Of a stretch of 64,000 bases of DNA, positions 2,439 through 56,641 are shown one piece after another. Each line of letters opens with the position of its first letter. The first letter of the stretch is position 1. The translations under genes and the position numbers were made by a program. Under the pieces are notes generated by a model, which made no database searches, was not told the DNA's origin, and worked only from the letters and a program-made list of their open reading frames with translations. Source of the stretch: an uncultured virus (IMG/VR IMGVR_UViG_3300044715_000653) (lineage: Duplodnaviria > Heunggongvirae > Uroviricota > Caudoviricetes); IMG/VR virus record IMGVR_UViG_3300044715_000653, one strand, 5' to 3'.

Positions 2439-2995
2439 TGGCATTACACGATACAGTAATCAAGATGGTAACACGTCAAAAGAAAGACGGTGTTGAAGAA
2501 GATGTTTCAGCAACTGAAAAGTTAATTAAATCAAAAGCTGGTTTAGTTATCAACATCTTTGCGGCATTGTTAGCATTTAACATGTGGCTACAGGGTAGTC
2601 TAAACAGTAAAGTAATGAACAACACTATTCAGGCCAATGACATCTGGGCGTTCTACCAAGCTAAAAGCATTAAGCAAACACAGTATGAACTAGCTGCACA
2701 ACAAATCGCAGATCCTGCTAAAGCTAAGAAGTTTACTGACAAAGCCGCTAGTTACGAGTTAGGTGAAGAAGGTAAACCAGCATTGTTTGCTCAGGCTAAA
2801 GCATTAGAAGCAGATCGTGACCATTACAAACAACAACTACCATGGGTAGGTTATGCGTCAACAGCATACCAACTAAGCATTGTGTTGCTATCAGCTAGTA
2901 TCTTAAGTGTTAGCATGGCCCTTTTCTGGGGTAGCTTTTTTATGGCAGGCGCAGGTGTATTCTTAATGTTACAAGGGATTTTATTATGGATGTAG
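2438..2995 (+). CDS. DUF4337-like membrane protein
   Basis: ANDIWAFYQAKSIKQ motif; one N-terminal and two C-terminal TM segments; start moved to ATG 2438. Confidence 0.7.
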   Translation: MALHDTVIKMVTRQKKDGVEEDVSATEKLIKSKAGLVINIFAALLAFNMWLQGSLNSKVMNNTIQANDIWAFYQAKSIKQTQYELAAQQIADPAKAKKFTDKAASYELGEEGKPALFAQAKALEADRDHYKQQLPWVGYASTAYQLSIVLLSASILSVSMALFWGSFFMAGAGVFLMLQGILLWM

Positions 2996-3318
2996 TAGAT
3001 TTAGTAAACAAATATGGCTTTCCCATTGTTATGGCAGTGGGTATGGGATTCATTATCAAATACGTATGGGAATGGGCCACAAAAGAGGTAAAACCAGTCA
3101 TTTCAGACGCAAATACTGTGCTTATTGCCTTGATAGATCGCATACGTATGTTAGACAATGATCTTATACGTTTGAATCAAAAAGTAAACACTGTCCTACA
3201 CCTACGTGGTAAAACAATTGAGTATGAACGTGTCGAAGCTGAAAAAGAAATTAACGATCTAAGCAAACACAAGAAGAAATCGGAAGATGACAACGCCGCT
3301 AGTGGCGGTAGTGACTAA
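2986..3318 (+). CDS. small membrane protein; paralogue of 1220..1501
   Basis: YGFPIVMA TM segment, then ALIDRIRMLDNDLIRLN. Confidence 0.75.
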   Translation: MDVVDLVNKYGFPIVMAVGMGFIIKYVWEWATKEVKPVISDANTVLIALIDRIRMLDNDLIRLNQKVNTVLHLRGKTIEYERVEAEKEINDLSKHKKKSEDDNAASGGSD

Positions 3319-5256: not shown

Positions 5257-7281
5257 TTATTTACTTGTAGCATGATATGTTCCGTCCCAGTTTGCAGGAA
5301 CACCCTGTTCCATGCGTTCAATCATTAGTTCATAGTAATGTTTAATGTCAACATCATCATTGTTAACTAACTTTTTAGCCCATACAATAGCCTTACTCCA
5401 TGAACCTCGAGTATATTCTTTACGATATTCTTCATGCATATAAAGATTAGTACGGCCAACTGTGTAAATGTCTAGACCAATTGTTTTGCCTTTAACAGCA
5501 ATGTTGTCTAACCATACTACAGGGAACGCATCTTTACAGTATTCAGCAGTCTTAGGACCAATGATTAGTAATACACCATATGATTTAGTCTGTCCTTCTA
5601 ACCGTGCCGCAGTACTTACACTGTCACCTAAGACATCATAGCCAAACTTGCTCTTAGCACCAATATTACCAATTAAGGTTTCACCTGTGTTAACACCTGC
5701 ACCCATACCAACCGGCGGTCGACCACTAGCTGTAAGTTCTACGTTAAAGTCTTCAATGGCTTTGATCATTTCAAGTGCTGTCTTAACCGCAGTCTTAGCG
5801 TGGTCAACATCGTCTAATGGAGCACCATGTACGTGTAAACTAGCATCACCAATAAACTTAATTAAAGTACCATCATTCTTAAGCACAGGAATACTCAATG
5901 CGGTCATGTAGTCGTTCATGATCTGTGTAAGTCCTTCTACATCATCACCAAACGATTCACCTAATGTAGTAAAGCCACGTAGGTCAGTCATAACAATTGA
6001 AAGTTCTTTACGTTCGCCGCCTAGTTTAATCAGCTCTGGATTCTTTTGTAAACGTTCAACAATAGTAGGGTTGACATAACTACCAAATTGTTTCTTGATC
6101 TGTTGTTTCTGTAAGAACTCGCTGATGAATTTAACACCATAAGCGTGTAGCATAACCAGTACACCACCTGCTGTGGGCACAATAGCATCAAACAAGAAGT
6201 TATAGTGTGCAAACGCATACATTGTTACAGGTGTAATTGCCGCAAGCAATACAACACCAACTCCTAAGCCAACATATACCCAACGGCTTAAGATTAAAAT
6301 AATAAGTGAGATAACAATAAGAGCTAACAGTTCGGCGTTGTCTGCCCAGAATGGACGTTCAATGTTTACGTTGTTAGCAAGTGTGCCAATAACAGCGGCC
6401 TGCATGTCTTGTGGCCATACACTACCGATACTAGTTGGCACAGGATTAGCTAAACCTGCGGCACTTAGGCCTACAATAACCACAGCACCACCAAAGTCTT
6501 TAGGTAAATTAACTGCTGATACCTGTGTCGACTTTTGACTCCAGTCTACCCAGATACGACCCAAACTGTCTGTGCTAATAGGACGGAAACTTGGTATGCG
6601 CATTTTCTCTACACCAAATTCATTTAACTTAACTTGGAAAGTTGAGTCCTGTGATATAACACGTAATACTTCTAATGGAATACTTGGATATACGTTATTG
6701 TCATAACCAACAAACAATGGTAGTCGACGATTAACACCATCCACTTCTGGAAACGTATTAGCAATACCAACACCTGCGGCATTACGTTCTAGTTCCGGAA
6801 TGTTAGCAATAATACCTGGATAGGTGATAATTGTGTCGCTGTATTCATCACCAATAACAGCACTGCCTGGTTTACGTGGAATGTTTTTAGTTGTTTGACT
6901 TGGCATGTTAGTTAAGATAACTGGATGATCTTCTAACTCTAATGCTAAGGCCGCATCGCCACCTTGACGATCTGCTTCTGGCATCATAACAGTCCAAACA
7001 ACTAGGCCGGCGCCATGTTTGTACAGGTCATCAATTAGGTTGGCATACTTGTCACGTTTGAATGGCCATTGTCCATACTTGTCTAATGTAGCTTCATCTA
7101 TGTTTACAGTATAGATATTATTTTCTGTAGGAGCCTTGCCGCCAATGAGGGTGTCAAAGTATCTAAGTCTAACTGACTCTACAAACGTAGGTCCTTGTAG
7201 GATTACTACCACAATAACAGCTAATGTAATTAATGCAGTCCACGGACTGACTAGGAGTTTTTTAAGTTTATTTTTCATCAT
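5257..7281 (-). CDS. CHASE2-domain class III adenylate cyclase
   Basis: N-terminal TM, CHASE2 (NIDEATLDKYGQWP, DGVNRRLPL), TM bundle, cyclase motifs TDLRGFT, KFIGDA, GDSVSTAARLEG. Confidence 0.92.
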   Translation of the reverse strand: MMKNKLKKLLVSPWTALITLAVIVVVILQGPTFVESVRLRYFDTLIGGKAPTENNIYTVNIDEATLDKYGQWPFKRDKYANLIDDLYKHGAGLVVWTVMMPEADRQGGDAALALELEDHPVILTNMPSQTTKNIPRKPGSAVIGDEYSDTIITYPGIIANIPELERNAAGVGIANTFPEVDGVNRRLPLFVGYDNNVYPSIPLEVLRVISQDSTFQVKLNEFGVEKMRIPSFRPISTDSLGRIWVDWSQKSTQVSAVNLPKDFGGAVVIVGLSAAGLANPVPTSIGSVWPQDMQAAVIGTLANNVNIERPFWADNAELLALIVISLIILILSRWVYVGLGVGVVLLAAITPVTMYAFAHYNFLFDAIVPTAGGVLVMLHAYGVKFISEFLQKQQIKKQFGSYVNPTIVERLQKNPELIKLGGERKELSIVMTDLRGFTTLGESFGDDVEGLTQIMNDYMTALSIPVLKNDGTLIKFIGDASLHVHGAPLDDVDHAKTAVKTALEMIKAIEDFNVELTASGRPPVGMGAGVNTGETLIGNIGAKSKFGYDVLGDSVSTAARLEGQTKSYGVLLIIGPKTAEYCKDAFPVVWLDNIAVKGKTIGLDIYTVGRTNLYMHEEYRKEYTRGSWSKAIVWAKKLVNNDDVDIKHYYELMIERMEQGVPANWDGTYHATSK

Positions 7282-7400: not shown

Positions 7401-7700
7401 ATGAAAACTATTTTAGCAGTATTATTATTAGGTAGTTGTATCACAGCAAATGCTAATCAGGCATTGGCACAGAAAAGTGGCTGTTTAGCTTGCCACGCAG
7501 TTGATAAAAAAATATTAGGTCCGGCGTATCGAGATGTTGCTGCCAAATATAAAGGTCAAGCTGACGCAGAGGCTAAACTTATAGCCAAAGTTAAGAAAGG
7601 TGGTAGTGGAGTATGGGGTCCTATTCCAATGCCGCCAATGAGTCCACAGATCAAAGACGAGGATATTAAAACGCTCGTTAAATGGGTGTTGACGCAGTAA
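7401..7700 (+). CDS. periplasmic cytochrome c (c551/c552 class)
   Basis: Signal peptide, CLACH haem motif, GPAY, WGPIPMPP axial Met. Confidence 0.92.
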   Translation: MKTILAVLLLGSCITANANQALAQKSGCLACHAVDKKILGPAYRDVAAKYKGQADAEAKLIAKVKKGGSGVWGPIPMPPMSPQIKDEDIKTLVKWVLTQ

Positions 7701-7701
7701 T

Positions 7702-7728
7702 AAAAAAGCCCCTTAATTGGGGCTTTTT
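7702..7728. terminator. bidirectional intrinsic terminator
   Basis: AAAAAAGCCCC-TTAATT-GGGGCTTTTT between convergent genes. Confidence 0.85.
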
Positions 7729-7731
7729 GTT

Positions 7732-8298
7732 TTATAGTTTACCTACTAAATCCAAACTTGGTGCTAGTGTAGCACTTCCTTCTTGCCATTTAGCCGGGCA
7801 TACTTCACCTGGATGTTCACGTGTGTATTTTGCTGCTTTAACTTTACGTAGCAACTCTTTAGCATCGCGACCTACACCACCTGGATTGATCTCAATGATC
7901 TGTACTACACCATCTGGATCAATAACAAACGTACCGCGGTCGGCTAAGCCTTCGCTTTCAATTAGCACACCAAATTGACGAGCCAACTGATGGTTAGCAT
8001 CACCAATCATTGTGTAGGTGATGTTACGGATTGTGTCTGTAGCATCTGCCCATGCTTTGTGTACAAAGTGTGTGTCTGTGCTTACACTGTATACTTCAAC
8101 GCCTAAGCCTTTGAAGTCACTTGCGTATACGTCTTGTAGGTCTGCTAATTCTGTTGGGCAGACAAATGTAAAGTCTGCTGGATAAAAGAATAACACACTC
8201 CATTTACCTTTTAAGTCTTGCTCTGATACTTCTACAAACTTACCCTGTTGGTATGCTTGTGCTTTAAATTCTTCTACTTGTTTTCCGATTAAACTCAT
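7732..8298 (-). CDS. ahpC: alkyl hydroperoxide reductase C (2-Cys peroxiredoxin)
   Basis: [13 protein letters not shown] and GEVCPAKW motifs. Confidence 0.95.
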
Positions 8299-8322
8299 TT
8301 ATTTCTCCTTGATTAAAATTAT

Positions 8323-8388
8323 ATACTACACTTATTAACTTCACTTGTCTAATTAAATTTTCTTATACCTATCATTAAAAAAATTTAT
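8323..8388 (-). promoter_or_regulatory. ahpC promoter with OxyR-like box abutting the -35
   Basis: TAGACA-17-TAGTAT preceded by ATAA-N7-TAAT-N7-ATAA-N7-TAAT (8352-8388). Confidence 0.5.
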
Positions 8389-8403
8389 AACCCGTATTCG
8401 TGA

Positions 8404-8425
8404 CAAAAGCCCCGAAGGGCTTTTG
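8404..8425 (-). terminator. intrinsic terminator downstream of pqqA
   Basis: CAAAAGCCC-CGAA-GGGCTTTTG; UUCG loop on the minus strand. Confidence 0.85.
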
Positions 8426-8448
8426 TTATTGCAGTACGGAACAATAAA

Positions 8449-8520
8449 TTACTTGTTCATTACATACATAGTTACTTCAAAACCGAAACGCATTTCAGTA
8501 GCTGCTGGTTTAGTCCACAT
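8449..8520 (-). CDS. pqqA: PQQ precursor peptide (not in ORF track)
   Basis: MWTKPAATEMRFGFEVTMYVMNK with the ExxxY core; AGGAG RBS; terminator follows. Confidence 0.93.
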   Translation of the reverse strand: MWTKPAATEMRFGFEVTMYVMNK

Positions 8521-8654
8521 AGTATTTCTCCTAGTAAATTATTAAAAAGTACCACAACATGTTTTGTTGTTACTAGTACTTATACATATAGTAGCACCTA
8601 AAACGGTGAAAAAACATACGTAAAATCATTAAAGACAGCTAAATTTCTCGTATT

Positions 8655-8723
8655 TTAGTGAAATATTGCTACAATCATTACTATTATACCAATTACCATT
8701 ACTGATATTAATGATCCTATCAT
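8655..8723 (-). CDS. 22-aa hydrophobic micropeptide
   Basis: MIGSLISVMVIGIIVMIVAIFH; TAATG overlap with the upstream stop. Confidence 0.4.
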   Translation of the reverse strand: MIGSLISVMVIGIIVMIVAIFH

Positions 8724-9514
8724 TATTCATCCCTCATTAACTTGTTTGCTTGTATAGCTGCATCAAGTACAGACAACGGTATATTATACGGTTTTGCCAT
8801 TGTAGCAAATGCCGCAGTGTCTTTTGGAAAGCATGCTCCGCCAAATCCAGCTTGTCCATCTGGACCAGGCACTGCCCAATGTGTATTACCTAGTCTTGAG
8901 TCAGTTGCAGCAATACGAGCAACTTCATTCCACTCTACATCTAAGGCACTGGCTAATACACTAAACTCATTGTTTAATACAACTTTAATGGCCAACATAT
9001 TGTTAGCAAAATATTTAAAAAAACTAGCAGTGGCAATGTCACAGTATTCAATATTAACACGGTCAAAGTTGATAGCACTGGCCATTAATACTTCAGCAAC
9101 TTCGTCGCGTAACTTTTTCTTACAGCCAACTACTATTTTATGTGGATTAACATAATCATACTTTGCACGTGCCTGTGTTAAAAATTCTGGAACATGCACA
9201 AGTTTAAGAGCTAGGTCTGTTTCAAGTCTTGTATATACATTGGGTGGTGCTGTACATTTGCAAATTACCAAACCATCGTAGCCCACTAGTCCTTGTAATA
9301 CCGATTCCAATATGCTGGTGTTGCAGGTGCCATCATCCGATTGCGGAGTAGGTACGCAGACAAATATCACACGACACTTTTTCATAAGTGTTTCATAACT
9401 GATTGAAGTATCTGGATATTTGTACGGGTCGTTGATTAATATTCGTTCGTTGGCATAGCTACTTGCGACTGCGCCGCCTACATAACCAAAGCCTATAATT
9501 CCGATATGTTTCAT
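8723..9514 (-). CDS. UDP-glucose/GDP-mannose dehydrogenase family, lacking the C-terminal domain
   Basis: GFGYVG Rossmann motif, FVCVPTP, PEFL, GFGGACFPKD; only 263 aa. Confidence 0.85.
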   Translation of the reverse strand: MKHIGIIGFGYVGGAVASSYANERILINDPYKYPDTSISYETLMKKCRVIFVCVPTPQSDDGTCNTSILESVLQGLVGYDGLVICKCTAPPNVYTRLETDLALKLVHVPEFLTQARAKYDYVNPHKIVVGCKKKLRDEVAEVLMASAINFDRVNIEYCDIATASFFKYFANNMLAIKVVLNNEFSVLASALDVEWNEVARIAATDSRLGNTHWAVPGPDGQAGFGGACFPKDTAAFATMAKPYNIPLSVLDAAIQANKLMRDE

Positions 9515-9562
9515 ACAGTTATTTTATACTCTTATTTGTCCGTTGTCTACTATTTAATCCAA

Positions 9563-9594
9563 TAAAAAGCCCCTTTCGGGGCAATTTATTAAAA
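9563..9594. repeat. 32-bp direct repeat copy A, containing a terminator
   Basis: TAAAAAGCCCCTTTCGGGGCAATTTATTAAAA, identical to 11951-11982. Confidence 0.9.
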
Positions 9595-11016
9595 GTTATA
9601 CTGTAGCTGAACCCGTAAAGCATCTGCTTTAAAGTTAGCATAGTCTTGTTTTACTAGTGTAGTAGCTGATGCGCCTGTTACTAAATTGCTACGGTTCATC
9701 ATATGATAGTAAGCCACAAGTTCAACTTCTGGAGCAATTTGCCATTCAGCACCCAACTCCCAATCGTTAACTTTGTTCATTGGTGAGTTAGTTTCTGCTT
9801 TTGACGCACCATCAAAGTATTGCCATCTAACAAATGGAATTAATGTACCATTGGTATCTAACACCTTGAAGTTATCAATTTTATACATAGTTTGAATGTA
9901 GCCACCGTTTAAATTAGTTTCTTTAATAATGCCGTCAGTACTAGCAGCAGTATCTAAGCCAGGAGTTTTACCCCAGTTCCACTCACCTTGCAAACCGAAA
10001 GGCATAGGGTACATCATAAAACTCACACCCACACGCTCATCTTTAAATCCAGTTGTATTGCCTGGTTCTAATGTTGGTGTTTTAGTTGCGTAGACATTGT
10101 TGCCCATATTTTTTCTATAAGCACTGCCTGTTCTTACATACTTGCCTGTATAACCCTGTACACCAGCTTCGTAAATTTGACCGCTTTCAGTTTTCCATGG
10201 GTAAGTAGCACGTGCCACTACATGGTAGTTGTCGTTACGATCTTGTTGGTTAGCACCTTGGCCGTTATATATACCTAAACCAAACATACCGTAGTTGCCT
10301 GAGTGTTTTAGTCCGCCATCTTGAATTTCTTTAAAGAGTTTTTGCACATTATCCGGTGTGTAGTAGTAAAACGCACCCAAGTCACGTTCATCACGTACCG
10401 CACTATTAAATGCGTCAGCACGATCAAGTGCTAGACGATTTTGTGAAGACTGTAAGTTTTCAAAGCCATATGGTACTTTACTTTGTCCAACACGAACGCG
10501 GTGGACTTTGTCTTTGGTCAAGTTGACATCACCATAAGCATCGCGTAATTGCGCTACGTTACCTGTAGTACCTGCTGTACTAGCAAAGTCAGGTTGAATG
10601 TAGTAATCTAAACGGTCACCGGCAGAACCAGAAATAATCACACGTGCTCGACGAATTAAGAAATTTTTGTCTTGATCAGCAAGAGAGTTTTTATCACCTA
10701 CAGATCGATCTGACCAAAGGTTAACTCCTTCATCACCACTGAGCATAGTAGTGTTACGCATTTGTAAATAGCCACGAATGCTCATTTTACTAGCCGCATG
10801 AACAGTAGTGTCTTTTTCTTTTTTAGCAGCGCCTGTTTCTCCACTGTGTCCTTTATTTAATAATGCGCCTTCTTCTTCTGTAAGTACACCTTTCATAACT
10901 AGTGCGTTAACAATGTCAGTGGTGCTGTCGGCATGCGCTTGCTTTAACCCTGCCATTGATAGCGCAAATGCTATTACTACATAATACATTATTGATTTAA
11001 CCTGTTGTATCGTCAT
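9589..11016 (-). CDS. phosphate-selective porin, OprO/OprP family
   Basis: Signal peptide, LVMKGVLT helix, FLIRRARV, LRDAY, GQSKVPYGFENLQSS, C-terminal Phe. Confidence 0.85.
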   Translation of the reverse strand: MTIQQVKSIMYYVVIAFALSMAGLKQAHADSTTDIVNALVMKGVLTEEEGALLNKGHSGETGAAKKEKDTTVHAASKMSIRGYLQMRNTTMLSGDEGVNLWSDRSVGDKNSLADQDKNFLIRRARVIISGSAGDRLDYYIQPDFASTAGTTGNVAQLRDAYGDVNLTKDKVHRVRVGQSKVPYGFENLQSSQNRLALDRADAFNSAVRDERDLGAFYYYTPDNVQKLFKEIQDGGLKHSGNYGMFGLGIYNGQGANQQDRNDNYHVVARATYPWKTESGQIYEAGVQGYTGKYVRTGSAYRKNMGNNVYATKTPTLEPGNTTGFKDERVGVSFMMYPMPFGLQGEWNWGKTPGLDTAASTDGIIKETNLNGGYIQTMYKIDNFKVLDTNGTLIPFVRWQYFDGASKAETNSPMNKVNDWELGAEWQIAPEVELVAYYHMMNRSNLVTGASATTLVKQDYANFKADALRVQLQYNF

Positions 11017-11027
11017 TCATCTTTCTC

Positions 11028-11777
11028 CTATTTGATTTCATTCCAATATATAATATCCCAGCGTCCTTCATAATCTTCTACCAGGGCACTACAACTTTCA
11101 ACCCAATCGCCGTCATTCATATAAATCATGCCGTTGATGTGTTTAATTTCGGGTGTGTGTATGTGTCCGCAGATAACACCATCGTATCCACGTTTTTGTG
11201 CGTACTGTAACATAGTAAGCTCAAACTTAAACACAAACCCCATTGCTTTTTTAACACGAGCTTTTAAAAACTTACTCAGACTCCAATAACCAAACCCTAA
11301 TTTTCTACGGGCAAAGTTAAAGTAGTTATTAAACCACAAAGCAACATCATACATCTTGTCACCTAAAAATCCTAACCACGGTGCTAGTCTAGTAACACCA
11401 TCAAACAAGTCGCCGTGTGTGATAAGAAATAGTTCCCCATCGATACTACGGTATTCTGCCTGATTGGCCATACGAATATTACCTAGATTAAAACCATGAC
11501 TAACTAACGGACGAAGGAATTCGTCATGGTTGCCAGTTATATAGGTTACATTGCATCCTCGTTTACTATAGCCTAATATCCTACGTATTACATTAGTATG
11601 GCTTTGATGCCAACGCCATTTGTTCTGCTGTATTTTCCAGCCGTCGATTATGTCACCTACAAGAAATAAATTTTCGCAGGTGTGATGTTTAAGGAAATTG
11701 TTTAATAGATCGGCCTTGGCATCTTTAGTGCCAAGATGGAAGTCGGATATACAAATGGTCTTATATCTTGTGGTCAT
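11028..11777 (-). CDS. metallophosphoesterase, PlcP/LpxH-like (probable phospholipase C)
   Basis: SDFHLG, GDIIDGW, GNHD, HGD, CGHIH, NDGDWVES motifs; start at ATG 11777. Confidence 0.85.
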   Translation of the reverse strand: MTTRYKTICISDFHLGTKDAKADLLNNFLKHHTCENLFLVGDIIDGWKIQQNKWRWHQSHTNVIRRILGYSKRGCNVTYITGNHDEFLRPLVSHGFNLGNIRMANQAEYRSIDGELFLITHGDLFDGVTRLAPWLGFLGDKMYDVALWFNNYFNFARRKLGFGYWSLSKFLKARVKKAMGFVFKFELTMLQYAQKRGYDGVICGHIHTPEIKHINGMIYMNDGDWVESCSALVEDYEGRWDIIYWNEIK

Positions 11778-11799
11778 AATTATATTTAAACACACAAAG

Positions 11800-14094: not shown

Positions 14095-15231
14095 TTATTG
14101 CCCCTGTATTACTGTTATAGCTTGACAACTACTAGCACAACTACTATTGATACTATAAAATTGTTGTACTGCACCTTGCTGATTTAAGTTTAAACTTCTA
14201 GCACCAGCACCGCTTAATGTAATGTCGGCCATGTGATTAGCACTGCCCTGTTGAGTTATGTCCACTGTCTTATTACCACCACTCAAGTTTAAGTTTAAGT
14301 AAGCATTACCACTGTCTTTTTGTAAGACTGTGACATTATTATTGTCATCGTTAACTGTAGCGTAGATACCTTTAGCACCGCCTGTACTCTGCTGTGTTAG
14401 ATTTACTGTATTACTATCACCGTTGACATTTAGTTCTACATAGTTTGCTGTTGTTGAACTATTACCAGTTTGTGAGATATTAACGGTATTGAAACTACCA
14501 CCACCATTGTATTCTGTGTAGTTATTTTTAGTACCCGTTTGATCAACTGTAATCTCATTGTCATTACCAATTTGGTCTATGTAGACTTGACTGTCATTGG
14601 TATTCCTTGTGGCGTATGACTGTACTTTTGTTACATTAGATGGACTAGCATTAAAACTTGACGAACTACCCCCACAGCATAGTGCAGGAGCTGCAGGCGC
14701 CCAATAGGTATTATCGGTGGCTGTTGACGCTGTGGGTACCATAGCCCATGCTGTTGCTCCCGGAGTGTACCACTGAAAGTTAACCATTTGTCCGCCACCG
14801 TTCTCGTAAAACATCACTTCCACAGCAACAACACCTGCGGCTAATGTAATAGAACTACTTTGTCTAAATGCTCCGCCACTTTCAATCCAACTGTCGACTA
14901 CAGAAACACCATCAACTTTAATACGTATACCGTCGTCGGCTTGTCCGCCAAAGTAGTAGGTGCCTGCTGTTGCGATATTAATGTAACCATAGAAACGAAC
15001 AATAAAGCCATCACTGCGAGTAGGCAAGCCTGCCCCACTACTAGTGGTTAATCCTACTGTGTTTACAGTTCCAGTACTTAATAGTGTGCGATTGGTGATG
15101 TTACCGTTGGCATCTTGAGTATACGAGGGTTGCGCACCGCCTGCGGCATAATTTTGATAATTAAGACCCGTAATTCCTGCTGCCCGGGTATCGGAACAAA
15201 CTAACAATAAGATTAAAAGGAGTCGTTTCAT
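14095..15231 (-). CDS. secreted PA14-domain protein with curlin-like repeats
   Basis: Signal peptide; PA14 (ADDGIRIKVDG, FYENGGG); repeats such as IDQIGNDNEITVDQTG. Confidence 0.75.
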   Translation of the reverse strand: MKRLLLILLLVCSDTRAAGITGLNYQNYAAGGAQPSYTQDANGNITNRTLLSTGTVNTVGLTTSSGAGLPTRSDGFIVRFYGYINIATAGTYYFGGQADDGIRIKVDGVSVVDSWIESGGAFRQSSSITLAAGVVAVEVMFYENGGGQMVNFQWYTPGATAWAMVPTASTATDNTYWAPAAPALCCGGSSSSFNASPSNVTKVQSYATRNTNDSQVYIDQIGNDNEITVDQTGTKNNYTEYNGGGSFNTVNISQTGNSSTTANYVELNVNGDSNTVNLTQQSTGGAKGIYATVNDDNNNVTVLQKDSGNAYLNLNLSGGNKTVDITQQGSANHMADITLSGAGARSLNLNQQGAVQQFYSINSSCASSCQAITVIQGQ

Positions 15232-16319
15232 TGTCGTCTTAACACTCCAGAATTCTGTTTGATACGTACTACATTACCACCTGGATCGCCTGAGCCAATT
15301 GTAGCTGAAGCAATATTATCATCATGTGTTATTTCAATCGACGTATTACTTTCGTAGCCCTGTGTTTTAACTTCCGCATAGTGATCTTCACTTTGACGAA
15401 ACGCTATTCCTCGACCTTTGGCCTGTAGACTGTCGCCATCAGGATTTTCCCACTTGACGCAGACGTTAATTGATGGATTACATCCTGATTTACCACTGTC
15501 AAAACTGTAAGGCATTACCGTAGCTTTAGCTTCGCCTTCTTTGGCTATACGTTGAGCAAGTTGACTTGCTTGGATAGCTTCTAATTCTTCTTGTTCTAGA
15601 TCACGTTTGCTTTTACCTGCTTCTTTACTAGCCTTGACAATTTCAGGTGGGCGGGTGATAATAAGACTGTTACCAATCTTACTTTCAATTGTGTTAATAA
15701 TAGCTGGAGGACTAGGCATCATGTTAGCCGATGTAACATAGGTACCTTCAAATGCTTTATCTAACGTAACTATACCAGCCAGTGTACTAACTTCAATCTT
15801 ACCCACTTTACATAAGTTTTCTTCTAGTTCATATTCTTTGATCTTTTCACCGTCTTTACAACTAGGCACAAGAATTACCAAACTCTGACCGGCTTCGTCT
15901 ACAGTCATGTTAAAGTCTGTACCACGAACAGCAATACTGGCTGTGGGAGTTTTAATGTCTACTCGTTGTGGATTATTCTTAGCAATTTGACCGCTGGCAT
16001 AGCGCACTGTGCCCATGCCTACTTTAAGTGCTAGTTTGCCTGCGTCAGATTTTTTAGGATCGAAGACAAAGTCGTCTATCATTAGTCGACTGTTTTCTGT
16101 TATTTTTACTTTGGTGTCATCTTTAAATGTAATGTTGCTAACACAGCCGCCTGTAACATAGGTATCCATACTTTCTATGGAGGCACCTTTGTTGCCAGGC
16201 AGGGTCTGTTTAGCACGCTCTATTGAACAAGCGGTACCTTTAGTATCGCTTACAGTTCCAATGCCCGCCCAACTGTTGGTATATGCTAATAAGCATACCA
16301 CGGCAAGCAATAGTTTCAT
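15228..16319 (-). CDS. FecR-domain periplasmic protein
   Basis: Signal peptide; FKDDTKVKITENSRL and IKTPTASIAVRGTDF motifs. Confidence 0.85.
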   Translation of the reverse strand: MKLLLAVVCLLAYTNSWAGIGTVSDTKGTACSIERAKQTLPGNKGASIESMDTYVTGGCVSNITFKDDTKVKITENSRLMIDDFVFDPKKSDAGKLALKVGMGTVRYASGQIAKNNPQRVDIKTPTASIAVRGTDFNMTVDEAGQSLVILVPSCKDGEKIKEYELEENLCKVGKIEVSTLAGIVTLDKAFEGTYVTSANMMPSPPAIINTIESKIGNSLIITRPPEIVKASKEAGKSKRDLEQEELEAIQASQLAQRIAKEGEAKATVMPYSFDSGKSGCNPSINVCVKWENPDGDSLQAKGRGIAFRQSEDHYAEVKTQGYESNTSIEITHDDNIASATIGSGDPGGNVVRIKQNSGVLRRQ

Positions 16320-16322
16320 TGA

Positions 16323-17114
16323 CTATCTCACTATTGCTGATACTGGGCTTACTATAGCACCGCTGCTTGAACGTACTGTAATCGTATTATGATCACCAGT
16401 TGTACTAATGTTCAATGTAGTATCATTTGTACCTTGTTGCTGTGTGGTAATACTGTTGTAGTCACCTGTAGTTGATGTAATTAAACTATGACCAGCACTG
16501 CCTGCAGCATCAATTTGTTGTATATTAAATATATTGTTGCTACCACTAATAGTGTTAGTAATATCGGCATTGCTAGTAGTTACACCAATGGTTAATTGGT
16601 TATTATCGCCGCCAATAGTAGTTGATAACGCATTATCACTGCCAACAATATTAGTAATCAACATATTAGTACTACCTGTAACTGACTCAGTAACAGTATT
16701 ACGCATACCGTTAGTGTTGGTGTTACCAATAGTAAGTTTATTTTGATTGCCGCTACCAGTTACAGTACTTGTATAGGTGTTAGTACCACCTTTAATATTA
16801 TACTGCGCTTGGTTATCATCACCAGTTTGCGTTATAGTAACACCATTATTGCTACCGTTGATTGTAGCATAGTTACTAGTACTTGGTGCTGTTACTGTTA
16901 GTGTACTTAGACCTGTTGCGTCAACTGCTACACTACCAGCAGTACCACCAACATCGTTAGTTCCGCCAACCTGTTCAATTGTAACATTATTGGTGTTACC
17001 CAATTGTTCAATGTAAACACGGTTAGGGCCTGTTGGACCTGCGGCTATTACCGACGTTGACAAAGCTAAAAACATCATACTTACCGTTGCTTTTAAATTA
17101 TATTTCATTGTCAT
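16323..17114 (-). CDS. curlin-like beta-repeat secreted protein
   Basis: Signal peptide; repeated x-Q-x-G-x-x-N units; Asn/Thr/Gly-rich. Confidence 0.7.
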   Translation of the reverse strand: MTMKYNLKATVSMMFLALSTSVIAAGPTGPNRVYIEQLGNTNNVTIEQVGGTNDVGGTAGSVAVDATGLSTLTVTAPSTSNYATINGSNNGVTITQTGDDNQAQYNIKGGTNTYTSTVTGSGNQNKLTIGNTNTNGMRNTVTESVTGSTNMLITNIVGSDNALSTTIGGDNNQLTIGVTTSNADITNTISGSNNIFNIQQIDAAGSAGHSLITSTTGDYNSITTQQQGTNDTTLNISTTGDHNTITVRSSSGAIVSPVSAIVR

Positions 17115-17138
17115 GCTCCTTGGATTTTTAAAATCCTA

Positions 17139-18005
17139 TTATTGTTTTTTTGTTTCTAACAGCGGATATGTTATACCATCTGTTTGTACTACAGGCTTAG
17201 GCTCTTCCTTAAATGCCCAATGCCCTTTTCGAACTCCTTCTCGAATAGTAGCAACCACAGCTGCTTTGACTGCTAGATTAGTTGCCTTATTGACACTTTC
17301 GTTAATACTCATACCAGATTCAGCTTCAATGGCTTTTGTGCCTTCTTCAACAAACTTTAATATACCAAATTTATCCATGTAGCTTAATACTGTTTTAGTA
17401 ACTGTTACAGTTGTTAATACTTCACCTGTATTAACGCTTACTGTTCTTAGAGTAACTGTAACCGTGTCACTTTGGTATTGTGTTTGAGCTCCTATACCCA
17501 AAATACGCATACCACTACCACCTGTAAGCAGGTTACTATCGTAGCCTGTTACACTTCCCTCAACAATAACACCAGCAAACATCATTGGTGGTAATGACTT
17601 GGCTTCTCTACCTTGATATTGTTCACGCATCTGACGAATCATCTGACGTTCTTTAATCAAGTTGTCTAACCCTACACGTTCTAACACAGTAAACCAACGT
17701 TGGTCGCCTACATCTTGTAAGGCGCCGATTAAGTATGCTTCTGCACCCTGCGATACTGCTGTACTAAAACTAGCCACGTTAGGTATATTCTTACGTTGTC
17801 CTGTTTTATCTAAGAAACTATACACTGCTATAGGAACAGGACCGCCTGCTGGAGGCAATACTCTATTCTCCGGTTTAGTAAAGTATGTTTCACGTACTAC
17901 TTCAGGTTTATCAAATTGTTCACCTGTGACTTTTTCACGAATCACACTACCCGTGGCACATCCGCCTAATGTTACTGCTAATAAAAGAATTAATAACTTT
18001 TTCAT
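17139..18005 (-). CDS. csgG: curli secretion channel CsgG-like lipoprotein
   Basis: Lipobox LGGC; AVYSFLDKTGQRK, FSTAVSQG, WFTVLERVGLDNLIKERQMIR. Confidence 0.9.
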   Translation of the reverse strand: MKKLLILLLAVTLGGCATGSVIREKVTGEQFDKPEVVRETYFTKPENRVLPPAGGPVPIAVYSFLDKTGQRKNIPNVASFSTAVSQGAEAYLIGALQDVGDQRWFTVLERVGLDNLIKERQMIRQMREQYQGREAKSLPPMMFAGVIVEGSVTGYDSNLLTGGSGMRILGIGAQTQYQSDTVTVTLRTVSVNTGEVLTTVTVTKTVLSYMDKFGILKFVEEGTKAIEAESGMSINESVNKATNLAVKAAVVATIREGVRKGHWAFKEEPKPVVQTDGITYPLLETKKQ

Positions 18006-18502
18006 TAGAAGTAAAAGGTCCCTGCTGGCACTTTCATTGTTGTTACATTATCAACATTAGCCAGATCCTGTATAGTAATAATAATTAATCCACTATCGCT
18101 ACCTGCGCCTAGACTCCACTCGATACTGTTACCGCCCAGGTTTGGTATATTACCGCATACCACTCCTGCTGTAGTACAGGTAGCACCTTCACCAAACATG
18201 CTGTCAGTTAGCTGTTTTGCTAGTTGACTATAAATTCTTGATTCTAAGTTAGCAATGAATCTAGCCTGCGGAGTATTCAATGCAGCAGATTCTGCTTTGG
18301 CCTGTATAGCTTCTGCCGCAGATTCACGCTTGTCCTTGGCCTGATCTTCTAATTGTTTAATCGTAAGGGCATGTATTCCAAAGCCCTGTCCGCTGAATGC
18401 CGGGCTACTGAATGTGTGCACCATTTCGCCAGCCTTGGCAATATTAACGCTAGCAGTCAACGTGACGACCAATAAAAGATTGCAGACCATACGTTTGTTC
18501 AT
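18005..18502 (-). CDS. csgF: curli assembly CsgF-like protein
   Basis: Signal peptide then GEMVHTFSSPAFSG; FIANLESRIYSQL; directly upstream of csgG. Confidence 0.75.
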   Translation of the reverse strand: MNKRMVCNLLLVVTLTASVNIAKAGEMVHTFSSPAFSGQGFGIHALTIKQLEDQAKDKRESAAEAIQAKAESAALNTPQARFIANLESRIYSQLAKQLTDSMFGEGATCTTAGVVCGNIPNLGGNSIEWSLGAGSDSGLIIITIQDLANVDNVTTMKVPAGTFYF

Positions 18503-18507
18503 GCGAA

Positions 18508-18537
18508 AGCCCCGGTTATTATTATTTAACGGGGGCT
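18508..18537 (-). promoter_or_regulatory. hairpin with an embedded late promoter upstream of csgF
   Basis: AGCCCC...GGGGCT stem enclosing TAAATA (18523-18528). Confidence 0.55.
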
Positions 18538-18559
18538 CTGATATAATTAACTTATAGTA

Positions 18560-18880
18560 TTACTTTGGAGGGTCTTCTAGATCAATTCTACGTAGTATTT
18601 CTTCATAGAATGTATCAACTTCACCGGAGAACTTACCCATTAGGTAAGTGATGCACTGACGACAGTAGTCGTAGTGTTTATTCTTATAACCTTGTAAAAA
18701 TTCTGCATGTAGATTAGTGTATTGTTCTAGCGTAGGCAAATCACCTAGGCTAATTTTATCAGCAGGAATTAGGCAAAATACTTCAAGACTTGCACCATCT
18801 CGCTCAACTGTTTCTAAATCTAATACAGTGTACTTTTCACGCAGTTTTTCTGCGTTTTCTCTACCAAATATAATTTCCAC
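18560..18880 (-). CDS. stand-alone homologue of the adenylate cyclase C-terminal region
   Basis: Aligns by eye with the last ~95 aa of 5257..7281 (see findings). Confidence 0.6.
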   Translation of the reverse strand: MEIIFGRENAEKLREKYTVLDLETVERDGASLEVFCLIPADKISLGDLPTLEQYTNLHAEFLQGYKNKHYDYCRQCITYLMGKFSGEVDTFYEEILRRIDLEDPPK

Positions 18881-19419
18881 TATCGTTTCTCCGTAATTCC
18901 GGCTTGTTTAAACACGTACTGGACTGCCTGCGCTTGACTGACTGCATCTTCTAATGCATTATGCAGGCCTGCTTTGTTCTTTTCACGTGGGTCACCTAGA
19001 CTACTTAACAAAGTACGACTATCACGGATCTGCCAGAACTGCCATGGACAAGGTTTGCCCAATCGTCTGTATAAGTTTTCTAAAATAACAATATCAAACA
19101 CCGGACCTTGTGCCCAAATATTGTCAGCACCTACTAGGAAACGATTTAAGTTTTGTGTGAACTCTTCTAGGCTAATACGGTTCTCAGGACTAAGTGCTTC
19201 TTCACGCACATCTTCTGCTTGGGTGCCCCACCATGCTACAGTGTTTTCGTCTACATGGCTACCTAACTCAATTTGTTCATCAACATTAATACGATAGTAG
19301 ATACCATCTGTCATAGGCTCTTGATTGTATGGGCTAAACTTAATAGCGCCAAATGTTAAGATAGTTGCTTCTGGGCGGGTACTTAGTGTTTCTAAATCAA
19401 GCATAACCGAAAAACTCAT
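18880..19419 (-). CDS. DEDDh 3'-5' exonuclease
   Basis: MLDLETL, WAQGPVFD, RDSRT, HNALEDA. Confidence 0.88.
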   Translation of the reverse strand: MSFSVMLDLETLSTRPEATILTFGAIKFSPYNQEPMTDGIYYRINVDEQIELGSHVDENTVAWWGTQAEDVREEALSPENRISLEEFTQNLNRFLVGADNIWAQGPVFDIVILENLYRRLGKPCPWQFWQIRDSRTLLSSLGDPREKNKAGLHNALEDAVSQAQAVQYVFKQAGITEKR

Positions 19420-19504
19420 TTTATTCCTTTATGAGATAAATAATAATGTAGTTCGCGATATGGGGATATCCAACTACTCTATAACTGAAAAGGAGTTACA
19501 GCAA

Positions 19505-20212
19505 ATGTATTTACAAAATAAATATTCTAAGTATTATTTTAACATAGTATCTAACGCAAAGTCAAGAACTTTATCACCAGAAACATATATAGAACGCCAT
19601 CATATTATACCAAAAAGTTTAGGTGGCAATAATTCTAAAGATAACTTAGTAAGCCTAACAGCACGAGAACACTTTGTTTGTCATTTATTACTACCAAAAA
19701 TGACTACAGGCCAGGCACAAATTAAAATGTTTCACGCGGCTTGGCGTATGTGCTGTAAAGGTAAGAACAGCAAACACGACTACAAAATGACATCTACTAT
19801 ATACGAAAAACTTAAATCACAACGAGCAGAATATCTTAAAACTTTAACAGGTCCGCTCAATCCTAACTACGGTAGAAAAACAGGACGCACATCAGAAGAT
19901 TTTACTCTCGAATGGAGAGAAAAGTTATCATTATCAAGGCAAGGGCAATCAAGTTGGAATAAAGGTATTGCTCGAACAGATGAAGAAGTATCTAAAATAT
20001 CTGTTACTCGCAAACTACGAGCAGGAACTCCTGGGTGGAATGTTCGCCCACCTTGCTCAGACGAAAAAGCGGAAAAGATTAAACAATCACTTATTGGCAA
20101 ACGCTGGGTACATAACAAGGAAACATGTGATAGAAAATACATATCACCTGAGTTATTTAACGAGTATATTAGTTTAGGTTGGATACCCGGATTAGGACCT
20201 AGAACTAAGTAA
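19505..20212 (+). mobile_element. free-standing HNH homing endonuclease with NUMOD3-like tail
   Basis: ERHHIIPKSLGGNNSKDNLVSLTAREHFVCHLLL; NPNYG and SWNKG repeats; AAGGAG RBS supports ATG 19505; opposite strand to neighbours. Confidence 0.85.
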
Positions 20213-20871: not shown

Positions 20872-21485
20872 AATTGTAATTCCCGAGTTTCATTCTGCCA
20901 ATTAGTGGTTGTATTAACTATTTCAAATAACATGTTTGCAATTTTTAAATTATTTTCTGTGCTGAAATGGTTGTTTCTAGTATCATATATGAATTTGTTA
21001 CAATCGGTAAGTTCTCTTAAACTTAAATCGTACAATGTCGTTCTATCAACTTTAACTCCGTTTAACTTATTAAAATATTTAGAAGTTAAAGGAAAATTTT
21101 GAACATGTATTACTTTTTTGTCCGCTAATAGATTATTTAATTCTTTGAACCATTGTCGACAACACCAATCATTGAATTTAAGATTTTGTAATTTTGTCAA
21201 ATAAAGTTTAATAACATCCGGATCGTCATCTCCTATGCGTAAGGTACCATCAGTACCAATAATCCTATTTGGGTCAGTGTGACAATATACAATAAGATCA
21301 GTTTTTTTAAATTCATCCGATGTATAAATTTTCATAAAATGTTCTCTTATGAACCACCAAGATTCGCCAGGTAAACCGGCACCAATTAAATTTAAATTTA
21401 ATAGGTTCGACAAATACACAGGCCAGTCTGTATCTATATATCTGTGATCACAAAAACTATCACCTATTACTAACAAGTTTCTCAT
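20868..21485 (-). CDS. SGNH/GDSL-like hydrolase
   Basis: IGDSF block I, C-terminal NHF; AT-rich. Confidence 0.6.
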   Translation of the reverse strand: MRNLLVIGDSFCDHRYIDTDWPVYLSNLLNLNLIGAGLPGESWWFIREHFMKIYTSDEFKKTDLIVYCHTDPNRIIGTDGTLRIGDDDPDVIKLYLTKLQNLKFNDWCCRQWFKELNNLLADKKVIHVQNFPLTSKYFNKLNGVKVDRTTLYDLSLRELTDCNKFIYDTRNNHFSTENNLKIANMLFEIVNTTTNWQNETRELQF

Positions 21486-21787
21486 GCAGCAGGTTCAAGT
21501 TTAATTACAAGTGGAAAGCCATTTGCTCTAGCAAGTTGTGTTGCTTCAACACCTTTTTGTTCTGCCATTTCATAAGGTAACACAATAACTGTTGCACTGC
21601 CTTCTTCGTGAATAGTTTGTGTAATTTCAATTGCAGTGTCAACGGCAATATCAAATACCACACGCAGACTTTCAATAACAAATTCCATAGTTGTTACATT
21701 ATCATTGATATAAATGACCTTGTACATACTGGGTTCTTTGACTGATAAGTTTGGTGTTGTTTTAACTTTTGCAATTGCCTTGGCCAT
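21482..21787 (-). CDS. clpS: ClpS N-degron adaptor
   Basis: PSMYKVIYINDNVTTMEFV, IHEEG, YEMAEQK, ANGFPL; start at ATG 21787. Confidence 0.9.
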   Translation of the reverse strand: MAKAIAKVKTTPNLSVKEPSMYKVIYINDNVTTMEFVIESLRVVFDIAVDTAIEITQTIHEEGSATVIVLPYEMAEQKGVEATQLARANGFPLVIKLEPAA

Positions 21788-21817
21788 ATCTTCTCTCTTT
21801 GTATTTTTGTTGAGGAT

Positions 21818-21837
21818 GGGTGGAGTTTCCTCCACCC
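21818..21837 (-). other. intergenic GC hairpin between hsp20 and clpS
   Basis: GGGTGGAG-GAAA-CTCCACCC with no U tract; probably mRNA stabilising or attenuating. Confidence 0.55.
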
Positions 21838-21851
21838 TTATTACTATACTA

Positions 21852-22316
21852 CTACTTTTCGAAAGAAATTGCAACCTTTTGTTTAACTGGTTCAGGTGTG
21901 AATTGTTCCAATTTAACTGTTAGGATACCGTTCTTAACGTGTGCTGAGTTAACTTCTACACCCTCGGCTAACTTGATGCGTTTAACAAAGTCACGAGCCG
22001 CAATACCACGATGGATATACTCAACTGGATTATGTTCAAGGTCATGAAGAGCTTCTTCTAAGCTGACTTCACGGTTAGTGCCGCGGATAACTAATTCACC
22101 GTTTTCAATTTCTACATCTAATTCATCTTCAGCAAAACCAGCTACTGCTAATTCAATGGCGTAGTTAGTTTCGTTTAGTTTAATTAGATTAAACGGTGGG
22201 TAGCCCGAATCCTTACCGCGTTGCTCTAAGTGTTGCAGTTGTGAAAATAACTCATCGAAGCCGATAGCAAACTTATAGATGCTAGGGATGTCAAGGGTTG
22301 TGTAAACTTGTTTCAT
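21852..22316 (-). CDS. small heat-shock protein (Hsp20/IbpA family)
   Basis: IGFD, YPPFNL, ELAVAGF, YIHRGIAARDF, NGILTV. Confidence 0.93.
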   Translation of the reverse strand: MKQVYTTLDIPSIYKFAIGFDELFSQLQHLEQRGKDSGYPPFNLIKLNETNYAIELAVAGFAEDELDVEIENGELVIRGTNREVSLEEALHDLEHNPVEYIHRGIAARDFVKRIKLAEGVEVNSAHVKNGILTVKLEQFTPEPVKQKVAISFEK

Positions 22317-42302: not shown

Positions 42303-42659
42303 TTATTCACTACTATGATCTTGTTTAATTTCTCTAACCGTATCCCCGGCTAGTTCTGCTAATGCGTTTTTAAGTTGTGTACGCTTGTATCCTTGGTCTC
42401 GAACTGCTATTGCTATACGGCCAATTTCTTCCAATGGCTGACCGTCGATTCGATTCTTTTTAAAGTCATCTTCCAATGACCAAACATACGCATGATGTTC
42501 GATTAATTCTAATACCAAAATATGCATAGGATTAATATTAACTTCTTTCATCTGCGCTAGATAAAAATCTAATTCTTCTTGATTAGTACCATTGGTTTTT
42601 CTGTGTTTGACTACAGCAATGGTGTAACGATCTACTATTTCAATTACTGGGAATTTCAT
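42303..42659 (-). CDS. hypothetical helical protein
   Basis: Start ATG 42659 (ATGA overlap with iscA); VWSLEDDFK. Confidence 0.6.
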   Translation of the reverse strand: MKFPVIEIVDRYTIAVVKHRKTNGTNQEELDFYLAQMKEVNINPMHILVLELIEHHAYVWSLEDDFKKNRIDGQPLEEIGRIAIAVRDQGYKRTQLKNALAELAGDTVREIKQDHSSE

Positions 42660-42979
42660 ACTGTAAAACTCTCGCCACATCCACATTCACCAGTGGCATT
42701 TGGATTAATAAATTCAAACCCTTCGTTAAGTCCTTCACGACGCCAATCCATTTTCAATCCGTCTACATAGACTAGGTCTTTTGGCGTGGTAAAAATACTA
42801 ACATCGTGACATTTGTATTCAATACTATCTGCTGTAAGTTGATCAACAAACTCAAGTACATAGCTCATACCACTACACCCAGCAGTTTTAACGCCAATTT
42901 TAATACCTAGCGTGTTTGCTCCGCGAGCAGTAATGCTTTTCTTAATTTTCTCTGCGGCTAATTCTGTCAGACTAATCAT
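42656..42979 (-). CDS. iscA: Fe-S cluster carrier IscA
   Basis: GCSGMSY, FINPNA, CGCGESF. Confidence 0.93.
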   Translation of the reverse strand: MISLTELAAEKIKKSITARGANTLGIKIGVKTAGCSGMSYVLEFVDQLTADSIEYKCHDVSIFTTPKDLVYVDGLKMDWRREGLNEGFEFINPNATGECGCGESFTV

Positions 42980-43124
42980 TGAATATCCTATCTAGCACTG
43001 CTTGTTTTTGTTCGTTAGTATAATTGTACCATTCGACTACTTCATCTGTTGTTCTACCACATCCACGGCACACATCATTATCTAAATGACAAACGCCAAT
43101 ACACGGGCTTTCGATATCTTCCAC
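42972..43124 (-). CDS. DUF1289-like Cys-rich small protein (not in ORF track)
   Basis: MEDIESPCIGVCHLDNDVCRGCGRTTDEVVEW...; GGAG RBS, GTG start. Confidence 0.8.
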   Translation of the reverse strand: MEDIESPCIGVCHLDNDVCRGCGRTTDEVVEWYNYTNEQKQAVLDRIFND

Positions 43125-43498
43125 TATTGCTTACTCCTGTAATCGTTTATTGCAGCTTTAATTGCATCTTCTGCCAAGACACTACAGTGTATCTTAACGG
43201 GCGGCAAGGCAAGATCTTCTGCTATTGCTGAATTTTTAATTGTAAACGCTTCGTCTATTGTCATACCTTTAAGCAGTTCTGTTACTAGACTAGAGCTAGC
43301 AATTGCACTACCACAGCCATATGTTTTAAACTTTGCATCTATTATTATACCGTCTTCTACTTGTATTTGCAACTTCATTACATCACCGCACGCCGGTGCG
43401 CCTACCATGCCGGTGCCGACATCAGATGAAGCGGCATCTAATTTACCAACATTTCTAGGGTTTTCGTAGTGATCTAAAACTTGAGCTGAATAAGCCAC
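43124..43498 (-). CDS. iscU: Fe-S scaffold IscU
   Basis: DHYENPRNVG, APACGDVM, GCGSAIASSS, LPPVKIHCS. Confidence 0.96.
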   Translation of the reverse strand: MAYSAQVLDHYENPRNVGKLDAASSDVGTGMVGAPACGDVMKLQIQVEDGIIIDAKFKTYGCGSAIASSSLVTELLKGMTIDEAFTIKNSAIAEDLALPPVKIHCSVLAEDAIKAAINDYRSKQ

Positions 43499-55931: not shown

Positions 55932-56603
55932 TTAGCGTAAGTCAAATAATATTATTTCAGATTTAGCTGTAGGTGCGATAGTAAGCTGTGTTTCTTGCCT
56001 AAATGCGTAGCCATCGCCTTCTATACTAGCTTGCCCGTTAATTGTAGCAGTACCGCTGACTATATAAAGGTAGTATCTACGCTGTGGATTAAGTGTAAAT
56101 TCATAGTCTTCAGTAAAAATTCCACTGTAGAACTTGGCATCTTGGTGTATAGGTAGTACACTGGTTACGTCAAAGAATTTGTTATCACGATCCTGTTCAG
56201 TAAAGGTATAGTTACTGTAGTTGGGTTCAGTATCTTTTACTGCGGTGTCAATCCAAATCTGTATGTAACGATTAGGAACATCGCTGGCATTGCCTTCTGT
56301 GTGCCAAATGCCCGTGCCATTGCTCATGCGCTGTACACTACCAGCGGCTACATCAAAGTCGTTGCCTAGGTTGTCTACATGTCGACATTTTCCTTCAATT
56401 ACATAGCCAAAGATTTCCATGTTTTGATGTAAGTGGCGTGGAACATGATTGTTGGGCTGAACACGATCATCGTTGATAACCTGTAGATCACTGTACTGCA
56501 TATAACGAAAATCTAAATAACTGTTGTTACTGAATGTTCTGTGGGTTTCTATCCAACCATCATCTCGATGAGCACGGGTATTAGAGGGTCTATGGGTAAT
56601 CAT
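55932..56603 (-). CDS. pirin-family bicupin
   Basis: RTFS, VINDD, HLHQNMEI, GTGIWHTE, QIWI; start ATG 56603. Confidence 0.9.
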   Translation of the reverse strand: MITHRPSNTRAHRDDGWIETHRTFSNNSYLDFRYMQYSDLQVINDDRVQPNNHVPRHLHQNMEIFGYVIEGKCRHVDNLGNDFDVAAGSVQRMSNGTGIWHTEGNASDVPNRYIQIWIDTAVKDTEPNYSNYTFTEQDRDNKFFDVTSVLPIHQDAKFYSGIFTEDYEFTLNPQRRYYLYIVSGTATINGQASIEGDGYAFRQETQLTIAPTAKSEIILFDLR

Positions 56604-56608
56604 ACAGA

Positions 56609-56641
56609 TATTTATAGGGCTAGCATACGTCACTATAAATA
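56609..56641. promoter_or_regulatory. back-to-back late promoters
   Basis: TATTTATAG...CTATAAATA inverted pair between divergent genes. Confidence 0.65.

Follow-up and report, generated by a model that had tools for sequence, protein, structure and literature searches.

We report that a gene of an uncultured jumbo phage encodes, as a protein of its own, what sequence profiles and predicted structures identify as a homologue, over its full length, of the C-terminal ~105 residues of class III cyclases with a CHASE2 domain. The gene (18560-18880, minus strand) lies in the stretch of 64,000 nucleotides analysed here, hereafter the window, and its product of 106 amino acids has no catalytic residues. 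It belongs to a new phage family without annotation that is derived from a known enzyme, and gene-content comparisons among phage genomes show it to be independent of both the phage cyclase and the phage curli (csg) genes.

The window comes from the genome of a jumbo phage, the complete relatives of which measure 315-355 kb. Its gene content includes ribonucleotide reductase, a helicase 47% identical to that of PA5oct/Paride, a primase, tail-fibre-like genes, S21, DnaK, Hsp20 and ClpS. RNA runs holding the stretch come from freshwater; DnaK is 69% identical to that of Ralstonia in a comparison made among plasmids only. Many host-like genes were also seen in three stretches of the window (7401-11795, 42656-43498 and 55932-56633), coding for cytochrome c, AhpC, phosphate porin O/P and a metallophosphoesterase, as well as for IscA-like and IscU-like proteins and pirin.

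The 106-residue frame starts with GTG, 8 nt downstream of a GGAG ribosome-site-like motif (18889-18892, minus strand) that falls within the end of the adjoining upstream gene. The latter, an Rv2179c-like 3'-5' exonuclease (18880-19419, minus strand), overlaps the small gene by 1 nt and is a member of a conserved upstream anchor whose constant part is the pair of Hsp20 and ClpS genes (21482-22316, minus strand). On the other side, 57 nt separate the frame from csgF in a csgF-csgG-curlin-FecR-PA14/curlin cluster (14095-18502, minus strand), a neighbour that is variably present and untied to the small gene; the cyclase gene is 11.3 kb away. A scan for sigma-70 promoters gave matches at background. 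A contig from one RNA library covers 18123-19167 with 119 differences in 1045 nt, which shows by its sequence that a relative was present in that library and is no proof of transcription. An HNH homing endonuclease gene on the opposite strand (19325-20212, plus strand) overlaps the start of the exonuclease gene, and is missing from the relatives found in RNA-library contigs.

The original prediction took the protein to be a stand-alone copy of the cyclase C-terminus, and its stand-alone status was borne out across the family. The open frame upstream of the family genes extended over 0-33 codons in all 26 loci examined, and 148 of the 150 listed representatives matched from residue 6 or earlier, in profile and protein alike. 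A search for fused forms yielded one match among 7999 scored long candidates, which is weak evidence, as real cyclases were not recovered from that set; the match, on a contig of 1.1 kb, is probably chimeric, the other part being an epimerase.

Homology to the cyclase was established by profile comparison, though the pairwise match alone is not significant. The window encodes a class III cyclase of 674 amino acids with CHASE2 and Guanylate_cyc domains (5257-7281, minus strand), and the alignment to this enzyme from which the original prediction started is indeed the top BLASTP alignment, yet at 19 identities in 100 positions and E 0.11 it stays at chance level. An HMM of 83 close homologues gave the window's own cyclase only 7 bits, and matched other CHASE2 cyclases of phages over their C-terminal ~100 residues, with E values as low as 3.7e-13 (9930 ORFs searched). 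The matches between family and cyclase tails were reciprocal, and the tail of the Melnitz cyclase reached E 8e-15 with the family HMM. Profile-profile alignment, one of the checks originally proposed, gave a probability of 99.25 and E 5e-20 over 112 columns (HHalign; 145 family rows against 41 rows of phage cyclase domains). The homologous segment of the window cyclase, residues 570-674 (5257-5574, minus strand), is diverged and has no LxGxFxG loop.

Structure comparison pointed the same way. The AlphaFold model of the small protein (pLDDT 93) shows a strand-helix-strand-strand arrangement, the two last strands forming a hairpin, followed by a bundle of three helices, and the model of the window cyclase ends in the same secondary-structure elements. 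Foldseek aligned the small-protein model to a phage CHASE2 cyclase over 106 columns with TM 0.67 and E 3e-3, and the TM scores to two predicted phage cyclases were 0.67 and 0.66. Among solved structures no clear relative was found by sequence search of the PDB (best E 0.1) or by VIA-align, which returned helical bundles only (best Z 7.8); Foldseek against the PDB gave nothing at E <= 0.001, a 40-column match to Rv1625c ranking 31st with E 1.4. In the ESM Atlas, Guanylate_cyc clusters appeared only at 0.86-0.87, which is a lead. A predicted complex of the small protein with a cyclase domain (residues 30-291 of A4) scored 0.01 and 0.00 (mark 0.32) and counts neither way.

The absence of catalytic motifs, including the VKGK lysine, was likewise upheld. 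The family alignment begins at about cyclase residue 570, past the metal-binding Asp pair, the substrate-specifying Lys/Asp and the catalytic Asn/Arg, so that the small protein starts after the N/R helix. VKG occurred in none of the 145 family rows and KG[KR] in one, and PF00211 (Guanylate_cyc) was not among the 25 of 28 Pfam families listed for the 145 members. The core strands, the dimer arm and the N/R helix are the main dimer-interface elements of class III cyclases. Because the small protein is missing all of them, action as a dimerisation blocker, which had been suggested together with a non-catalytic mimic, is unlikely; the description as a non-catalytic, free-standing derivative of the cyclase C-terminus holds.

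The phage cyclases themselves vary. In the motif VSTAARLE of the window cyclase, Ser occupies the position that in class III cyclases is normally the catalytic Asn, a variant common to many phage cyclases, while others keep VN. The cyclase of HTVC008M (L113:10867-12702) stops directly behind the VKGK hairpin, so that among phage cyclases the helical tail is optional.

The small gene is far from a singular occurrence: 395 of 399 candidates were close homologues, and the family comprises at least 150 clusters at 50% identity. At E <= 0.001 there were 313 representatives; the 150 listed measure 74-144 amino acids and the other 163 may include whole cyclases. No Pfam family matched the 106-residue protein, and no model in Pfam, PHROG or NCBIfam covers the stand-alone family. 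A tblastn search of 50,697 phage records recovered no stand-alone copy, and none of the four cultured relatives Paride, Atu_ph07, Phosso and XaC1 has the gene. Ratios of dN/dS show the frame to be a real gene under purifying selection, with values of 0.069-0.102 for the three closest partners of the window sequence and of 0.048 for one pair that includes a cyclase-less genome; over 134 pairs (pS 0.03-0.6) the median was 0.21 and the maximum 0.91, the maximum coming from distant, near-saturated pairs. A quick tree was built from 202 rows over only 122 columns; in it a single branch with an SH-aLRT of 100 separated every one of the 139 stand-alone rows from 38 phage and 25 bacterial cyclase tails. 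As the stand-alone rows form one clade, this tree argues that the family is an old split of single origin and not a recent copy of the cyclase in the window genome.

Within the family, the N-terminal MxIIFG strand is conserved and the start point fixed, and the structural positions L-E-L-D/E, H58, Y, Y92 and R98 are kept while VKG is lost. The best-conserved loop, G-K-F/W-x-G-E-L-D-S/T-F-Y, is common to about half of the phage cyclases, and most of the 25 sampled cyclases from bacteria have a gap or other residues at this place. Cyclases keep the terminal W of the WDG motif, which is lost in 67 of 145 family rows including that of the window. H58 is invariant in the stand-alone rows and present in 97% of phage cyclases; E87 (88% of stand-alone rows), D89 (93%), C36 (88%) and C73 (86%) are family-specific and differ from the cyclase consensus. 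A disulfide between C36 and C73 was considered and rejected, the two residues not being positively coupled (both in 87 rows, only one in 56, neither in 2, of 145).

The original prediction also held that the small gene links the cyclase to the csg operon, and this did not survive wider sampling. Close relatives of the window share the order exonuclease-small gene-csgF, whereas the constant anchor in the wider sample is the upstream series Hsp20-ClpS-(exonuclease or metallophosphoesterase)-small gene, whatever lies downstream. We chose 80 loci of an abundant freshwater jumbo-phage group by a ClpS motif, left out 21 with less than 5 kb downstream and counted 59. The small gene was present in 36 of these, without csg in 26 and together with csg in 10; two loci had csg only and 21 had neither, counts to be read with the caution that the loci are not independent and that csg might lie beyond the sampled stretch. 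Among the ten near-complete (>= 90%) carrier genomes, four have both the cyclase and CsgG (G003, G050, G051, G484) and six have neither (G052, G053, G482, G483, G487, G488), the copies in these six being 33-51% identical among themselves. A six-frame scan of all 3663 ORFs of G053 detected no cyclase core (best E 0.29), and domain profiles detected no core half in the other five. Conversely, G043 (92% complete) and the two cultured phages Melnitz and HTVC008M have the cyclase and csg genes without the small gene. Since the genomes were found via the small gene, the cyclase or ClpS, these counts show independence and are not frequencies. The six cyclase-less carriers likewise speak against the phage's own cyclase as the main target.

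A different pair of genes, heme oxygenase-like and bilin reductase-like (PcyX/PebS-like), was seen in the slot between ClpS and csgF in twelve loci that lack the small gene (L048, L050, L078, L083, L087, L093, L095, L096, L098, L105, L107, L109); the names were given by reading the sequences and come from no family search. A gene of ~224 amino acids in the slot of carrier-less loci was considered as a diverged copy of the small gene and rejected, its sequence reading as bilin reductase-like.

The junction with csgF carries signals of its own. Between the small gene and csgF lies a hairpin (18506-18539, minus strand) with the csgF ribosome site in its 3' arm and, at its top, a TAAATA late-promoter-like box (18523-18528, minus strand), whose promoter role is inferred from T4. 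TAAATA was found in all 44 distinct small gene-csgF junctions, and upstream of the family genes in 6 of 116 cases, which is the background rate (0.058 per 80 nt). Of the 54-nt stretches around the box, 33 of 39 fold more stably than shuffled sequences (z < -2, median -4), the better-folding box being taken where two occurred; the junction of L001, identical to that of the window, has a folding z of -4.1. The csgF ribosome site is paired in 35 of the 37 stretches that have one. The stems differ in sequence among lineages, so it is the structure that is conserved across diverged phages. Box and hairpin argue for control of csgF separate from that of the small gene, with read-through possible. 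By analogy with T4 we infer late expression for csgF, with the small gene closing an earlier unit; as it has no late box of its own, the small gene is probably made before the late csg genes. A conserved late box and hairpin would imply that the phage curli genes are switched on late and gated at translation, and such timing bears on the question of their role.

In bacteria the tail segment was encountered only as part of whole cyclases. We searched 401 genomes from the phylum to which G077 belongs, taken to be Pseudomonadota, and the family profile had matches in 56 of them. All matches but one lie in frames of 456-3314 amino acids, and all 25 that were checked are cyclase domains of the ordinary signalling type; the lone short frame in the 401 genomes is a broken cyclase with catalytic motifs. 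An exact pattern search of GTDB, which covers part of the family only, gave five matches, three by chance and two real. The two real matches, like one further stand-alone copy from the GTDB bins, are on MAG contigs where they occupy the Hsp20-ClpS block of the phages; all three were read as mis-binned phage, and copies native to bacteria were rejected. Contigs of the phage group occur in GTDB bins labelled Fischerella and Haliscomenobacter (L239, L242, L250), and one bin has two different copies of the gene. Within the scope of these searches the stand-alone form is therefore specific to phages, and likely hosts do possess cyclases with the tail. Three bacterial cyclase-like proteins (L261, L273, L274) have the tail with VKGK and other motifs lost, and are possible full-length pseudo-cyclases.

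What the protein does can be argued from these patterns. Since the gene is kept in genomes without a cyclase, its target is most likely on the host side, and a decoy or regulator of a host cyclase is the part of the original prediction that we continue to favour. The tail subdomain became a separate gene a single time, in the distant past of a clade of uncultured jumbo phages with genomes of ~315-355 kb, and purifying selection has maintained it. The small gene, as last of the Hsp20-ClpS-nuclease block, would be made before the late genes, and its product would act as a decoy of tail-bearing host cyclases, damping cAMP signalling during infection. Two routes can be envisaged. The N-terminal strand, which lies on the core in the cyclase and is left bare in the free protein, might displace the enzyme's own C-terminal segment and so bring in a hairpin without the phosphate-binding lysine; alternatively, the helical bundle might titrate the normal binding partner of the cyclase tail. 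A pre-late decoy that acts on tail-bearing host cyclases or on their partner is our tentative preference, held with somewhat less than even confidence. The narrower proposal that widespread pseudo-cyclase tails shut down host class III adenylate cyclases by segment exchange, removing the phosphate-binding lysine, is unlikely; if true, phages would possess an inhibitor of cAMP signalling in bacteria that is made from a subdomain of its own target, and the little-studied helical tail would prove to be a regulatory handle in many bacterial cyclases. Against a host decoy in general, the conserved GELDSFY-type loop is no simple copy of a host cyclase surface (25 bacterial cyclases), tail matches were confined to 56 of the 401 genomes, and the terminal W, as noted, is often lost.

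An old exapted domain, moreover, need not retain a tie to its parent enzyme. The main rival is an unrelated protein-binding role in the chaperone/protease block, for example as adaptor or co-factor of ClpS, Hsp20 or DnaK, which would use the TPR-like bundle and the acidic GELDSFY loop. We consider this possible, on the unlikely side. The gene stands behind Hsp20-ClpS in nearly all loci regardless of the downstream genes and of the presence of a cyclase, and the family-specific E87, D89, C36 and C73 are unlike the cyclase consensus; on the other hand, 23 of the 59 ClpS-anchored loci have the block without the gene, and gene order is conserved in these phages anyway. Similarity of the bundle to helices of TPR-like and MIT-like type lies at Z 6-7.8, but Z below 8 is usual for any helical bundle; the TPR-like chains (Z 6-7.6) are within this background, and no TPR family was among the 25 of 28 Pfam families listed for members. 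Regulation of the phage's own CHASE2 cyclase, coupling it to the csg cluster, is refuted as sole function by the six near-complete carriers without either, and has a slim chance otherwise. It would fit the position directly upstream of csgF in the window and most close relatives, the loop shared with about half of the phage cyclases and the four near-complete carriers with both genes, but the window cyclase has lost that loop, csgF is equipped with a box and a hairpin of its own, csg is missing from the locus in 26 of the 36 carrier loci that extend at least 5 kb downstream, and three genomes, as described, combine cyclase and csg without the gene.

A role as sensor or sponge for a metal or small ligand, held by H58 together with E87/D89 or with C36/C73, would agree with the strong conservation of these residues; H58 may nonetheless be structural, given its frequency in phage cyclases, and the two cysteines are not positively coupled, which leaves this reading equally improbable. 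Even less probable is an anti-defence decoy against a host immune cyclase of class III fold (Pycsar-like). A phage-only, small and non-catalytic family of patchy distribution within its clade would suit such a role, yet every checked bacterial match was to an ordinary signalling-type cyclase, and the fixed place and strong purifying selection are unlike those of fast-moving anti-defence genes. We know of no such C-terminal tail in PycC. That the protein is half of a split cyclase is very improbable and largely refuted: it begins exactly where a core fragment would end, but the six cyclase-less genomes gave no core half in the searches above and the lysine expected from a complementing half is lost; a dead fragment is excluded by purifying selection. 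If the preferred action on host cyclases is correct, the gene would give phages control over cAMP that requires no enzyme of their own, and its product would be a ready probe for the helical tail of many CHASE2 cyclases of bacteria, a tail to which our structure searches matched no solved structure. Whatever the target, the gene clearly exemplifies an enzyme subdomain that became independent and has outlasted its parent gene.

Among known systems, the closest in gene content is the phage csg-FecR-cyclase module described in pelagiphages (Wittmers 2022, PMC9599517; Zaragoza-Solas 2020, PMC7029224), which, in the portions of these accounts available, comprises the same csgF-csgG-curlin-FecR-curlin-cyclase set as the window and is described with no mention of a stand-alone tail. 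In HTVC008M and Melnitz, which unlike the window lack this tail, two phrog_18771-type small proteins precede csgF. Paralogues of these with a membrane helix and a coiled coil are encoded at 1220-1501 and 2986-3318 (both plus strand) of the window and travel with the csg-cyclase module; they are probably the 'histidine kinase' of PMC9599517, although their length falls short of a complete kinase. The Bacteroidetes bS21 phages, so far as their description was available (PMC9723584), differ from the window in gene context. For csgF, the parallel is with T4 gene e and I-TevI, where a ribosome-site hairpin keeps the mRNA untranslated until the late promoter within it fires (PMC3014915). In these cases and at csgF alike, a late box is embedded in a hairpin which, on read-through RNA, masks the ribosome site; the box is TAAATA at csgF as against TATAAATA in T4, and its promoter role at csgF is a prediction from sequence.

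The literature within reach of our search contained no described phage mimic of a class III cyclase and no stand-alone cyclase tail, with the proviso that supplements could list the gene as hypothetical. Phages do encode non-catalytic mimics or fragments of host proteins, and the small protein resembles these: it is short, confined to phages and devoid of catalytic function, and it is homologous to one part of a host enzyme family. Sinorhizobium meliloti has a related nsrA-cyaK pair, and the tail of its CyaK is shorter, with only 2.8 bits to the family HMM. The C-terminal segment of CHASE2 cyclases (PHROG 35576 type; S. meliloti CyaK) has the same strand-helix-hairpin and three-helix bundle as the small protein and shares with it the H, Y, Y and R residues and, in many cases, the W of WDG. 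Unlike the CHASE2 cyclases, the small protein is free-standing, having shed the sensor, the membrane helices, the metal aspartates, the specificity residues, the N/R pair and the VKGK lysine.
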